Source: a virus (lineage: Duplodnaviria; Heunggongvirae; Uroviricota; Caudoviricetes). From it: a DNA stretch of 29,095 nucleotides. The notes beneath the pieces are model-generated. The model was not told the DNA's origin. It saw only the letters and a program-made list of their open reading frames with translations, and ran no database searches. The DNA lies in the IMG/VR virus record IMGVR_UViG_2872158770_000007. One strand, given 5' to 3'. Position 1 is the first letter of the stretch; every line of letters starts with the position of its first letter. Below are positions 18,046-29,095 of the stretch, piece by piece. The position numbers and the translations under genes are program-made.

Positions 18046-23388
<5,343 letters not shown>

Positions 23389-23796
23389 TAGACTGGCCCC
23401 CTGAATCTCCAGACAACCAGTATCACTTAAATAAGTGATAGTCTTAATACTAGTTTTTAGACTAGTCATTGGAGTACAGATGATTGATGTCTTAGGGCCG
23501 GAGAAACGCAGACGGCGTACCACACAGGAAAAGATCGCAATTGTTCAGCAGAGCTTTGAACCGGGGATGACGGTCTCCCTCGTTGCCCGGCAACATGGTG
23601 TAGCAGCCAGCCAGTTATTTCTCTGGCGTAAGCAATACCAGGAAGGAAGTCTTACTGCTGTGGCCGCCGGAGAACAGGTTGTTCCTGCCTCTGAACTTGC
23701 TGCCGCCATGAAGCAGATTAAAGAACTCCAGAGCCTGCTCGGCAAGAAAACGATGGAAAATGAACTCCTCAAAGAAGCCGTTGAATATGGACGGGC

Positions 23797-26181
<2,385 letters not shown>

Positions 26182-26326
26182 ATGCGGTGCGGGTATGATC
26201 ATTTTGTTCACACACAATTGATTAAACCCGCTGCCGAAAACCCTCGATAGTACCGCCAGTATGGAGGGACCCATTGAATGCAATGGTTAATATACTTTGT
26301 AAGCTATATACAATGAATCATGAGTA

Positions 26327-26629
26327 TCAAAGCCGCTTACATTTAATATCATCGTACAAAGTTCCTTCTTTGTTTAGATATCTCGAACCGTAATTATATC
26401 CATCATCAAATGCTTCATTGGTTATTACCAGTTCCCTGTAAAATTTCTCATCAGGTGCTGTTTCATAATGAAATGCACCATAAGGCGGCGGCATTTTACC
26501 GAGATATCTTGTAACGTAGAAACTCATGTCAGTACTAAATGAATCGTTATGAATATCCCAGCATTTAAAGTCTGGAATAGCTGCACTTGTTGTTAAAGGT
26601 AATAATAATAGCAATATCAATTTTTCCAT
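26327..26629 (-). CDS. small secreted protein (signal peptide MEKLILLLLLPLTTSAA)
   Basis: ATG at 26629 gives a classic signal peptide; the track's upstream start is TTG. Mature protein about 80 aa with three Cys. Confidence 0.45.
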   Translation of the reverse strand: MEKLILLLLLPLTTSAAIPDFKCWDIHNDSFSTDMSFYVTRYLGKMPPPYGAFHYETAPDEKFYRELVITNEAFDDGYNYGSRYLNKEGTLYDDIKCKRL

Positions 26630-26848
26630 AAGAGATACCAATGCAAATGATTTAATTGCATGATAACACCTACAAAGTCTCAATACCAATTAACAAGCGA
26701 TATGGCTGATTTTGTTTCAATTACGTAAAATAATTTAAAATATCGTTAATTAAAACAATTGTGATGAAATGCTCACCTTGTAATTTGTTGCGTATTTGAT
26801 GAAAGTACTTACCCTTCATCAAATACACATTTCTTTAGTACTTGCCCT

Positions 26849-27289
26849 TTACTTGATAAGCAAACTATAGAATTTTCTTGTCTGCTCAACTGCAACGACA
26901 AAACAGCCAATTGCAAAACATGCTCTCAACCCACCATCCCCGCCGTGTAATGACATTGCGGTAGTGAATATAAAATTAGTCACCAAGAAAGTAATAGCCA
27001 TATACAAGATGAAATATAGAAATGAGAAAATGCGGCAAAGTATATTACTGCTTTTAATATCAAATATCTTTGCAAATACTTTCGTTAGTGGTGAAAAAAG
27101 CATAGCAATAAAACCAGGAACTACAGTTAGTAAGAATATCATTACTAACATTAAAGGTACTTTAACGTATTCATAACCACTAACACGAGTTAAAATAAGT
27201 ACTCCGACGATACCTGTTATTAAGCCACCGATTAGTAGTTCTTTAGTTCCTGCAAACATTTCAGAGATATTATCGACTGTAATTTTCAT
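26849..27289 (-). CDS. integral membrane protein, about 4 transmembrane segments
   Basis: 146 aa with four hydrophobic stretches (LLIGGLITGIVGVLIL, LMLVMIFLLTVVPGFIAMLF, IFSFLYFILYMAITFLVTNFIF, ACFAIGCFVVAV). Confidence 0.45.
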   Translation of the reverse strand: MKITVDNISEMFAGTKELLIGGLITGIVGVLILTRVSGYEYVKVPLMLVMIFLLTVVPGFIAMLFSPLTKVFAKIFDIKSSNILCRIFSFLYFILYMAITFLVTNFIFTTAMSLHGGDGGLRACFAIGCFVVAVEQTRKFYSLLIK

Positions 27290-27394
27290 TCTACTAACTA
27301 TTCCTTCATAAAAAGTTCACTCCGATCTTATCACCGCATAAAGAAAAAGCCCTGTAGATTCTCACCATACAGCCTAAGCACTAAACTTTTCGGA

Positions 27395-27664
27395 TTACTT
27401 CGATACTACCTGCCATTGTCCATCATGCCGGATGATCTCATACTGGTACTTACCATCACACCGTACATCAATACGTCCTGTACCATTCTCAGTACTATCC
27501 ATAGTCACCATATCGCATGGGTACTTACCCTTGATTAGTGACTGTGCGAAATCCATAGCGTTCTGGTTCTCATTGTCCGTGTACTGTGGCTGGGGTGCAT
27601 CCTCACCTGCAATGTTGAAGAGTACCCCAGCCAGTACTAACAAAATCACCATTACCTTTCCCAT
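27395..27664 (-). CDS. small exported protein
   Basis: 89 aa. N-terminal hydrophobic signal-like segment VMVILLVLAGVLFNIAG, then a polar domain with two Cys. Confidence 0.45.
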   Translation of the reverse strand: MGKVMVILLVLAGVLFNIAGEDAPQPQYTDNENQNAMDFAQSLIKGKYPCDMVTMDSTENGTGRIDVRCDGKYQYEIIRHDGQWQVVSK

Positions 27665-27671
27665 ACGTACC

Positions 27672-28034
27672 CTATAGATTGTCGAGGATATGGGATGGTG
27701 AATTGACCCCTTCTAACCAATCGTGAACACTATCGGTCTGATGTGGTACTACCTTACTTACATGCTCTCTATAGGGATGTAGTTCAGCAATGCGGGAATC
27801 TCGTATGAGGCATCCAGTACTTGTATTGTCATCATGATAGATCTTGTTATAGATGCGACCGCAATCACTCTGGAACTGAGGACGGTAGTACTTCACCCCA
27901 TTACGTGTTCCTGCATCAAACAGTACTACGGCCTTGTCATCTACATAGCCAACGTAAGCTTTATCCATGAAGCTGTGCGTAGTAGTACATCCAGTACTAA
28001 GGGCAATCAGTAACCCAATTAGTAATTTTTTCAT
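27672..28034 (-). CDS. putative lipoprotein
   Basis: MKKLLIGLLIALSTGC: positively charged n-region, hydrophobic core, lipobox-like STGC. 120 aa. Confidence 0.5.
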   Translation of the reverse strand: MKKLLIGLLIALSTGCTTTHSFMDKAYVGYVDDKAVVLFDAGTRNGVKYYRPQFQSDCGRIYNKIYHDDNTSTGCLIRDSRIAELHPYREHVSKVVPHQTDSVHDWLEGVNSPSHILDNL

Positions 28035-28039
28035 TATTG

Positions 28040-28591
28040 TTATCCTATTAATTTTTCACATTGCTCAAAACGCATTGGCCTGAACTCTCCCTGTACCGCC
28101 CATACACCGGCCTCTCTGAGAATTGGGTAATACGTTTTATCTCTGACGGGTACGATCACCTTCTCGCAGTACTGGCGAATGCTTTTTATGAGTACTGGAA
28201 AGATCAGACGGTCAATGTTCTCTTCTGTGTACCTTCTATTTAATCGGGCAACCTCGAAATCACCTGTAACCAGAGGAATAGCAGAACCACCATGTACACC
28301 GAGATCATCAAGCCACTGCTGGTTATGTACTTTCATATCCCTTGTCATCTGCCGAAGGAATGGTAAGTACTCGTATGGTTCACCACGGCCAGTAGTAATC
28401 ACACAATACAAACCGTTATCCCTGAACCATGCCGCCTTGCTTTCAATAAGCATTAGTTGCCCATGAAGTACTTCTTCTTCCCATAGGCCGATCTGCCTGA
28501 TTCCCTCGCGTTCTACATGGCTGACCAACTCAACCCCCAGCAACTGACCACCCAAACTTGTTATCGGTATTGCCCAATTATCAATGTTCAT
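28040..28591 (-). CDS. degenerate EAL-like domain protein (YdiV-like?), function uncertain
   Basis: 183 aa. QLLGVELVSHVEREG resembles the EAL/EVL motif region of degenerate EAL proteins. DDLGVHGGSAIPL sits where active EAL domains have DDFGTGYSSL. C-terminal AVQGEF is where QGY would be. Too short for a complete catalytic EAL domain. Confidence 0.3.
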   Translation of the reverse strand: MNIDNWAIPITSLGGQLLGVELVSHVEREGIRQIGLWEEEVLHGQLMLIESKAAWFRDNGLYCVITTGRGEPYEYLPFLRQMTRDMKVHNQQWLDDLGVHGGSAIPLVTGDFEVARLNRRYTEENIDRLIFPVLIKSIRQYCEKVIVPVRDKTYYPILREAGVWAVQGEFRPMRFEQCEKLIG

Positions 28592-28742
28592 AACTTTGCT
28601 CGTTACGCTTTAAGTTATTGATAATTGATCATTTTTAAAACATTGGCAATTAAATCGATCAATTTTATTGATCATTACAATAGAATTAATCATTCAAAGT
28701 GGTAAACAAAGGGGTGCTGGATTTTTGGGAAACTGACTGCAA

Positions 28743-28762
28743 TACTGTACATATATACAGTA
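28743..28762 (+). promoter_or_regulatory. LexA (SOS) box TACTGTACATATATACAGTA, 21 bp upstream of the ATG at 28784
   Basis: CTGT-N8-ACAG with an AT-rich spacer, 19/20 match to the enterobacterial consensus TACTGTATATATATACAGTA. Followed by AGGAGG (28771-28776) and the ATG. Confidence 0.8.
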
Positions 28763-28783
28763 ATACATAGAGGAGGGTAACAA

Positions 28784-29095
28784 ATGAGCAAAGACGGCTA
28801 TGATCCATCCATTACGCGAGGGGTTCAGAAGTTCTCACATAACGGTCGCTGGGCAACCGTGTGTTATTGGGGATCTGCACTAACAGAATTTCATTATGGG
28901 GATAGGGTATTCTTCCAGAATCAGTACAGGGAATACTGGTTAGGTACTATAGAGAGAGATTGTTTTGTACTTACCTGTGAAACACCACTAATAAGTGTTA
29001 TTGATGGGTTAGCATATCTATCTGCTGAGTACCGGATGAATCAAAGCAGTGAAGAAGGTGATTGGTTCTGTGATCAGGGGGAACTACCCTTCTGA
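28784..29095 (+). CDS. SOS-regulated small protein of unknown function
   Basis: 103-aa ORF with a strong RBS and a LexA box overlapping its promoter. No motif recognised. Stop at the window end. Confidence 0.5.
   Translation: MSKDGYDPSITRGVQKFSHNGRWATVCYWGSALTEFHYGDRVFFQNQYREYWLGTIERDCFVLTCETPLISVIDGLAYLSAEYRMNQSSEEGDWFCDQGELPF

Follow-up and report, generated by a model that had tools for sequence, protein, structure and literature searches.

A conserved repeat cluster in a lambdoid prophage as a candidate promoter and LysR-type operator of an STM1697-like anti-flagellar gene

The current analysis concerns a cluster of short repeats and GATC sites that lies between two divergently oriented genes of the Caudoviricetes record IMGVR_UViG_2872158770_000007, whose entire 29,095 nucleotides are referred to here as the window. 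The window is a low-GC lambdoid prophage with Nu1 and gpA terminase genes, and the cluster sits inside a 192-bp divergent region, bounded on one side by a minus-strand open reading frame (ORF) encoding a degenerate EAL-like protein of 183 aa and on the other by a plus-strand ORF of 103 aa (Table 1). The original prediction, made from the letters of the sequence, had taken the repeats for operator-like sites in a promoter region, suggesting regulator binding and possibly methylation-sensitive control of the flanking genes. We find that the cluster is real, conserved, and functional-looking, and we regard the chances as evenly balanced that it is the promoter-operator of a prophage moron, in which a sigma-70 promoter (P1) and a YeiE-like LysR operator are placed on a gene of the STM1697 family.

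The repeats themselves are largely where they had been reported. The decamer ATTGATCATT is present at 28624-28633 and 28667-28676, all three GATC sites were found at the positions given for them, and the ORF map confirms a divergent intergenic region of a prophage as their location. The related 12-mer TTATTGATAATT, placed earlier at 28614-28625, actually occupies 28615-28626, one base further on. Three additional copies had escaped listing: ATTAATCATT at 28685-28694, ATCGATCAAT at 28654-28663, and, on the minus strand, ATTGATAATT at 28576-28585, which falls within codons 3-6 of the EAL-like gene. When the decamer was searched for across the window, 12 matches with at most one mismatch were obtained versus 4.5 expected, five of them inside 28576-28694, and of 29 ATTGATM heptamers in the window five are likewise found within 95 bp. 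Dinucleotide shuffles of the local AT-rich sequence gave p=0.06 for the exact 10-mer repeat alone and p ~0.005 for the five-member motif family. For three GATC sites in 43 bp, a Markov-1 model of the 29 kb gave p ~0.4 window-wide, and the corresponding value for a 192-nt region at 30% GC was p=0.006; GATC is not avoided by the prophage, with 116 sites in the window versus 93 expected. The strongest evidence for a non-chance origin of the cluster is its conservation across ~16 related promoters.

The gene downstream of the cluster provides the context in which these repeats can be understood. Among crystal structures, the family profile of the 183-aa protein matches only PDB 5hxg, which is Salmonella STM1697 (E 1.4e-28), and pairwise comparison with STM1697 yields 31% identity (E 2e-31), with the FlhD-contact helix FPxLxKxIRxYC kept. 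The STM1697 residues F160/L172/L173/H176/Y180, a list taken from PMC5622320 and PMC8262846, align with Y/V/L/S/Y of the 183-aa protein, and its match to NCBIfam PRK11596 is weak. STM1697 binds FlhD and blocks RNA polymerase recruitment by FlhD4C2 (PMC5622320). Judged by this homology, the 183-aa gene belongs to the STM1697/YdiV family of degenerate EAL anti-FlhD4C2 proteins. Homologs with 49-100% identity were taken from metagenome contigs, isolate genomes, and IMG/VR, and the named isolate hosts among them are Enterobacter, Lelliottia, Scandinavium, and E. coli. In all of these contigs but L136, where the 103-aa ORF was not called, the synteny is kept, i.e., the 103-aa ORF and a LexA box diverge from the EAL-like gene, which is followed by small genes and then by the terminase. 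The module is rare in E. coli: megablast and blastn searches returned no match of the region among complete E. coli genomes or phage records, and of 5426 complete genomes, none carries the window type and one carries the type found in L130. The L137 contig has an additional, canonical EAL gene (PF00563). A particularly informative arrangement is found in locus L227, in which the 103-aa ORF and its LexA box are present, a resolvase replaces the EAL gene, and the cluster motifs are all missing; the cluster therefore belongs to the EAL-like gene. The anticipated control of both flanking genes accordingly holds for the minus-strand EAL-like gene and does not extend to the plus-strand ORF, which has its own LexA box, kept in this locus lacking both the EAL gene and the cluster.

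To describe the conservation, upstream regions were aligned on the ATG for 16 promoters, comprising those of 15 prophage lineages that carry a common sequence block and that of STM1697. In gene orientation this block reads GATCAATTATCAAT; on the plus strand it is ATTGATAATTGATC, which corresponds to the 12-mer joined to the first decamer. It is identical in 13 of the 15 block-carrying lineages, differs by one or two bases in the other two (L136 and L222), and ends 25-26 nt from the ATG, with the distant lineage L229 forming an exception to the pattern. A promoter scan found TTGCCA, a 17-bp spacer, and AATTAT, the last being part of the block, and this is the -35/-10 spacing of a sigma-70 promoter. 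From the positions of the hexamers, transcription is predicted to start near 28614 on the minus strand, leaving a 5' untranslated region (UTR) of 23 nt. The same layout recurs with TTGnnn exactly 17 bp upstream of AATTAT in 14/15 block-carrying lineages, the exception being L001 with AATGAT. Orthologous -35 variants include TTGACT, TTGATC, TTGATT, TTGATA, TTGAGT, TTGCGA, and TTGCTA, so that the TTG is retained in all lineages but L001, whether a GATC is present or not. Between homologs of 49-100% protein identity, spacer and 5' UTR vary freely in sequence, and the STM1697 promoter reads TTGATT-17-CATTAT. Based upon this conservation and geometry, we consider it very probable that the 12-mer and the first decamer are the -10 region of a conserved sigma-70 promoter. 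The exact 14-mer was also tried as a marker in IMG/VR and abandoned, since only one of its >120 matches (L075) adjoins an EAL homolog and the rest are chance. Pac-like TGATCA/G hexamers of the phage P1 type, a cos site, and a replication origin were likewise considered for the block and rejected, as it keeps a fixed distance of 25 nt from the ATG, Nu1 is ~3 kb away, and the gpA/Nu1 terminase is a lambda-type (cos) one.

The distal repeats are of a different nature. Here, the window contains two dyads of the LysR-type T-N11-A geometry located three helical turns apart. An upstream dyad at this register can be found in 11/15 block-carrying lineages, centred at -82 in the window and L005 and at -69 to -71 in nine others. 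Those nine are among the 11 block-carrying lineages outside the window group, and their dyad has the form A[CT]C-N9-G[GA]T, typically TACCACTAAAAnTGGTA; L003, L007, and L134 are without it. Its geometry is that of a LysR recognition site, for which a centre of about -55 to -80 is expected. A second dyad, ATC-N10-GAT, is centred at -38.5 in most non-window lineages and overlaps the -35 hexamer; the position near -38 is shared by STM1697, and the equivalent in the window lineage is found at -51. The window, nine further prophage lineages, and the STM1697 promoter (-70/-38) all have the two dyads 31-31.5 bp apart, a pairing that, as far as geometry can tell, is the classical LysR layout of a recognition binding site (RBS) and an activation binding site (ABS). 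The unusual positions in the window are attributable to a 13-bp tandem duplication carried by the window, L003, L005, and L007, which created the third GATC together with the second decamer and shifted the dyads 12-13 bp away from the promoter. Within this window group, ATC-N9-GAT at -51 is retained in all four members, including those in which a GATC is destroyed. Covariation of the dyad arms (ACC/GGT, ATC/GAT, ACC/GAT, ATC/GGT) was examined and set aside as evidence, there being too few independent changes.

Published work on STM1697 suggests which regulator may be involved. YeiE is a LysR-type regulator and a sulfite sensor (PMC8931317), and deletion of yeiE raises STM1697 mRNA through a mechanism described as unknown (PMC8262846). 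YeiE also binds the yeiE-yeiH intergenic DNA, both in electrophoretic mobility shift assays (EMSA) and, in E. coli, by chromatin immunoprecipitation, autorepressing its own gene and activating yeiH (PMC12880088). This led us to compare the prophage promoters with the yeiE-yeiH region of E. coli K-12, and local alignments were significant at p<1/300 for the window, L007, and L137. The region contains a core of ~55 bp, CTTACCACTTATAWAGATTRATTATAAATATATAATCAATTTTA, that is almost invariant across ~20 enterobacterial lineages, whereas its flanks diverge, and inspection of the probe sequence in the supplement of PMC12880088 showed the core to be contained in the published EMSA probe. In several of the lineages surveyed (L139, 5620-5717; L140-L219), insertions of ~60-100 bp occur between the core and yeiE. 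When 45 nt of the core were slid, ungapped, along the full window on either strand, the best match was the one at the cluster, in gene orientation, with 32/45 identities; the next best score was 27 and the mean 13 (standard deviation 3.1). This score was never reached in 3000 shuffles of the intergenic region and 3000 of the core, the maximum of which was 31. The in-register agreement is concentrated in TTACCACTT (9/9), GATTAATT (8/8), and ATGATCAAT versus ATAATCAAT (8/9), and the same register is also the top match in L003, L007, L137, L130, and L075. Furthermore, ACC-N9-GAT is present in the core too, with an ATC arm 31 nt on; if TAACCT is taken as the yeiH -10, these sites are located at -65 and -34 by hand count.

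The promoter of STM1697 can be aligned with those of the prophages at the same register (p 0.006-0.02); it has ATC-N9-GAT at -38, the relaxed form ATT-N9-GAT at -69, a GATC at -46, and none at -16. STM1697 itself is carried by a short record labelled as a Salmonella phage (OR851295.1, "Salmonella phage S.Kent 1-2-1", UNVERIFIED_ORG, 2175 bp; our L138), positions 1116-1823 of which give a full 235-residue match to STM1697 (5hxg) at E 2e-157; this record is probably host rather than phage DNA. Because of the core similarity and the published genetics on the homolog STM1697, we tentatively assign the distal repeats to a YeiE-type LysR operator, an assignment that in our estimation falls slightly short of an even chance. 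The expectation of operator-like sites in a promoter region is thus borne out, in that the motifs coincide with a conserved sigma-70 promoter and with LysR-type dyads matching a region bound by YeiE.

Several inferences can be made regarding how such a promoter-operator might function. A YeiE-type tetramer would bind the upstream recognition dyad and the promoter-proximal site, and by analogy with STM1697, bound YeiE would presumably repress P1. Ligand-bound YeiE could possibly release this repression or even activate the promoter, as at yeiH. Production of the anti-flagellar protein would thereby be tied to the host YeiE signal. A number of observations weigh against this proposal. At the promoter, the P1 start is a prediction from the hexamers, and L229 has a perfect TTGACA at an odd -35/-10 spacing; this distant lineage (1765-1960) retains only a CCTACC-N10-GGTAGG dyad and ATGATCAATAT. 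The whole GATCAATTATCAAT block, a TTA at +2..+4, and every base of the GATC sites at -16 and -46 are near-invariant, which is beyond what the dyad model alone would explain. In the window lineage, the dyads are located at -82/-51 rather than -70/-38, positions that are atypical for occlusion of a -35 hexamer. The STM1697 promoter is without a TTACCAC box, and its upstream dyad is present only in the relaxed form. Moreover, the similarity is to a region that YeiE binds and not to a defined YeiE site, and although YeiE binds the Cronobacter cysJ promoter, the cysJ promoter of E. coli K-12 is only weakly similar (17/20).

Table 1. Features of the divergent region and its flanking genes, with coordinates in the window and signed positions relative to the predicted P1 start
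Feature	Coordinates	Strand	Position or basis
Degenerate EAL-like gene (183 aa), STM1697 homolog	28040..28591	-	profile and pairwise homology
Inverted copy CAATTATCAAT of the promoter block	28575..28585		codons 3-6; pairs with 28617-28627
IHF core match TATCAATAACTTA, perfect to WATCAANNNNTTR	28611..28623	-	-9..+4 of predicted start
Conserved block (12-mer and first decamer)	28617..28630	-	contains -10 hexamer
-10 hexamer AATTAT of P1, predicted	28621..28626	-	promoter scan and conservation
GATC-1	28627..28630		-16..-13, abuts -10 hexamer
-35 hexamer TTGCCA of P1, predicted	28644..28649	-	promoter scan
13-bp tandem duplication, AATTAAATCGATC then AATTTTATTGATC, 10/13 identical	28648..28673		repeat family D1 and lineage comparison
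GATC-2	28657..28660		-46..-43, right arm of distal dyad, within TCGATCAATT on plus strand
Dyad ATC-N9-GAT, LysR-type T-N11-A geometry	28658..28672		centre -51
Match to yeiE-yeiH invariant core (TTACCACTT..GATTAATT..ATRATCAAT)	28661..28705	-	32/45 gapless identities
GATC-3	28670..28673		-59..-56, left arm of distal dyad, inside second decamer
Dyad ACC-N9-GAT	28689..28703	-	centre -82, 31 bp from -51 dyad
LexA (SOS) box TACTGTACATATATACAGTA	28743..28762		overlaps likely promoter of 103-aa ORF
103-aa ORF (phrog_2100), predicted SOS-controlled	28784..29095	+	LexA box upstream

Of the alternatives to be weighed, a Dam-dependent switch fares best, although we still consider it unlikely. In such a scheme, methylation of the clustered GATC sites would set promoter activity directly, via SeqA on hemimethylated pairs, or in competition with a regulator, and could yield replication-coupled or phase-variable expression. 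Every lineage has two to four GATC sites within ~60 bp of DNA with 30% GC. The -46 site is present in 15/16 promoters, including STM1697 (GATT in L005), and the -16 site in 14/16 (GATT in L222, GCGC in STM1697), while adjacent bases vary, for the -16 site those just upstream. The distance from -16 to -46/-47 is 30-33 bp, or ~3 helical turns, and that from 28627 to 28670 is 43 bp, or ~4 turns. The hosts are Dam-positive enterobacteria, and the lack of GATC avoidance in the prophage would be compatible with such control. If the dyads are real sites, at least two GATC sites would fall in putative binding sites at the promoter, with those at -59 and -46 in dyad arms and that at -16 next to the -10 hexamer. 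The LysR regulators OxyR and HdfR are classic Dam-sensitive binders. At positions that read GATC in the prophage operators, GATT or AATC is found in the chromosomal yeiE-yeiH core, and this core was free of GATC in every lineage examined (L139 and L140-L219).

The behavior of the individual sites argues against Dam methylation as the primary logic. GATC-3 is lineage-specific, a by-product of the duplication found only in the window, L003, and L005; it is aligned with the AATC of the yeiE-yeiH core, and in L007 its place is taken by AATC. A -33 GATC present in other lineages is replaced by TTGCCA in the window and elsewhere by TTGATT or TTGACT, yet the promoter geometry is kept. L222 and STM1697 are without the -16 GATC; in L222 (~1460-1475), GATTAATTATCAAT replaces the block, and the sequence so changed is 13/14 identical to the yeiE-yeiH core. 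L005 (GATT) and L007 (AATC) each lose one GATC of the -51 dyad but retain ATC-N9-GAT, and selection at that site therefore appears to act on the dyad arms rather than on the Dam site. Indeed, most of the GATC sites are present because the dyad arms are (G)ATC and GAT(C). OxyR half-sites (ATAGnTnnnAnCTAT) were not found within 28592-28783 at up to two mismatches. Given the mixed conservation of the GATC sites and a chromosomal core free of them, Dam sensitivity is possible but finds no support as the primary logic; Dam or SeqA sensitivity would be a plausible secondary addition to the operator, though we doubt it. A more specific version, which we find quite improbable, would be that the prophage turned the GATT/AATC arms of a YeiE-type operator into GATC and so made it Dam-sensitive, with YeiE occupancy and Dam methylation in competition. 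If true, the FlhD4C2 inhibitor would be expressed in a heritable ON/OFF or replication-coupled manner, amounting to a prophage-imposed, phase-variable shut-off of flagella wired to a host sulfite sensor. Competition between OxyR and Dam is known at agn43, gtr, and opvAB; we know of no Dam sensitivity of YeiE, whose operator the prophage one resembles.

Somewhat less likely still is that the repeats merely reflect the preferences of nucleoid-associated proteins on AT-rich acquired DNA, with H-NS nucleating at TCGATCAATT to silence the moron and integration host factor (IHF) binding TATCAATAACTTA across the start. The intergenic region is indeed only 30% GC, and TCGATCAATT, at 28655-28664, matches 9/10 positions of TCGATAAATT, reportedly the high-affinity motif of H-NS, with equivalents in most lineages. 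WATCAANNNNTTR is matched only twice in the window, the IHF match being one of the two; across lineages its N positions differ, and the consensus is kept in all but L136. Inside host cells, STM1697 undergoes strong induction (PMC5622320), as is typical of silenced islands. However, the window has no excess of the H-NS motif (two matches versus 3.4 expected), whose orientation flips between lineages, while L136 breaks the IHF consensus and still retains a -10 hexamer. Lying as it does across the -10 hexamer and the start, the IHF match could be explained by constraints on the promoter or on the initial transcript. AT-richness also leaves unexplained both the 32/45 in-register agreement with the yeiE-yeiH core, a score above every composition-matched shuffle, and the fixed 31-bp spacing of the dyads. 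The action of nucleoid-associated proteins is not exclusive of the promoter-operator we propose and would be compatible with it.

The conserved block could alternatively be the anti-start-codon arm of an RNA leader, a scenario we regard as very unlikely. Here, transcripts started further upstream would fold CAAUUAUCAAU of the -10 block onto AUUGAUAAUUG in codons 3-6, burying the AUG and limiting translation. The two arms constitute an inverted repeat (I4) of 11 nt, 100% complementary and 31 nt apart, and the predicted fold encloses the AUG with a dG of -16 kcal/mol (z -3.8). Pairing is predicted in 10/12 lineages, and those with an Asn(AAT) -> His(CAT) change shift the pairing register to the adjacent AAUGAUCAAU half (AATGATCAAT) of the same block. 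Nevertheless, the conserved promoter puts the start downstream of the 5' arm, and no compensatory substitutions are observed: the upstream arm does not vary, and the conserved I-D-N/H-W peptide constrains the downstream one. In the L130/L002 lineage, the pairing is lost and the block is kept, and no Rfam family was matched. Least probable of all, and to our minds barely worth entertaining, are operators of a repressor encoded by the prophage or a low-complexity repeat arisen by chance, for although the motif copies are operator-like and the immunity region of the prophage is outside the window, the motif does not recur elsewhere in the 29 kb, conservation and shuffle tests rule out chance, and the same architecture is found in very different prophage backbones (at 49-100% protein identity) and at chromosomal STM1697, which points to a host factor. 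By-eye comparisons with the consensus sequences of the Fur box, FNR (TTGAT-N4-ATCAA), CRP, sigma-28, the DnaA box, and the C1 operator of phage P1 gave poor matches or wrong spacing.

The surroundings of the cluster are also of note. The LexA box upstream of the 103-aa ORF, which the original prediction had not mentioned, differs by one mismatch from the consensus, is the sole match in the window, and is conserved in all related loci, including the EAL-less L227. For the 103-aa protein, searches of Pfam, NCBIfam, PDB, and a set of 5.8 billion proteins returned only "hypothetical" matches and no named family. LexA-controlled prophage genes outside the immunity region include the Gifsy antirepressors and 186 tum, and we can only guess that the 103-aa ORF, under LexA control, has a similar antirepressor-like role. 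On the other side of the EAL-like gene, the region 25561-28034, up to Nu1, contains variable small ORFs (as it also does in L003, L005, L132, and L134-L137), including ones for lipoprotein-like and membrane-protein-like products without family matches, such as 27672-28034, which starts MKKLLIGLLIALSTGC; it looks like a cargo or moron region varying by lineage. An IS3-family element (23435-24708) with HTH_Tnp_1 and rve ORFs and ~49% GC versus ~37% around it interrupts gpA, leaving an N-terminal ORF at 24679-25122 and a C-terminal one at 21888-23348. Due to this insertion, the prophage is probably defective.

On this reading, the cluster is of an ordinary kind, with a LysR-type operator next to a promoter; what makes it interesting is its placement on a mobile, STM1697-like anti-flagellar gene. 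How YeiE represses STM1697, and what signal induces this gene inside host cells, are both described as unknown in two papers. From the architecture common to STM1697 and ~15 prophage homologs, one would expect YeiE to bind directly at defined bases, and sulfite becomes a candidate for the signal behind STM1697 induction. Lambdoid prophages also carry STM1697-like anti-FlhD4C2 genes, and this regulatory cassette with them, among Escherichia/Shigella, Enterobacter, Lelliottia, and Scandinavium. As gene and cassette are mobile together, a prophage could plug the control of host motility into a host regulon. In addition, the presence of GATC in the prophage and of GATT or AATC in the chromosome offers a natural contrast with respect to the Dam tuning of a LysR regulator beyond OxyR and HdfR.

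When compared with known systems, each part of the locus has recognizable parallels. The consensus SOS box over the promoter of a small prophage ORF near the terminase end is reminiscent of other LexA-controlled prophage genes, from which the locus departs in that the 103-aa protein is without detectable similarity to a named family and its ORF lies outside the repeat cluster. As in the Dam/LysR switches, i.e., OxyR at agn43, P22 gtr, opvAB, and Mu mom or HdfR at std, GATC sites are found in LysR half-sites at the promoter of a prophage accessory gene, whereas the prophage region has no OxyR consensus and the number and positions of its GATC sites vary by lineage. STM1697 shares with the prophage gene a homologous coding sequence and a promoter in the same register, but it is chromosomal, encodes 235 aa with an extra segment of ~40 aa, adjoins no LexA-controlled ORF in the fragment examined, and has neither the -16 GATC nor the TTACCAC box. 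The closest regulatory parallel that we can draw is with yeiE-yeiH. There, YeiE binding has been demonstrated, whereas the prophage site is known from its sequence match; the prophage target is an EAL-like gene instead of yeiH, its divergent partner is a LexA-controlled ORF instead of a regulator gene, and in the window lineage the 13-bp duplication has displaced the dyads to -82/-51. Despite these distinctions, both have a divergent arrangement, in-register TTACCACTT, GATTAATT, and ATRATCAAT, an ACC-N9-GAT dyad with its ATC arm, and even the same A/G polymorphism (GATTAATT/GATTGATT), which is seen in the chromosomal and the prophage sets alike.

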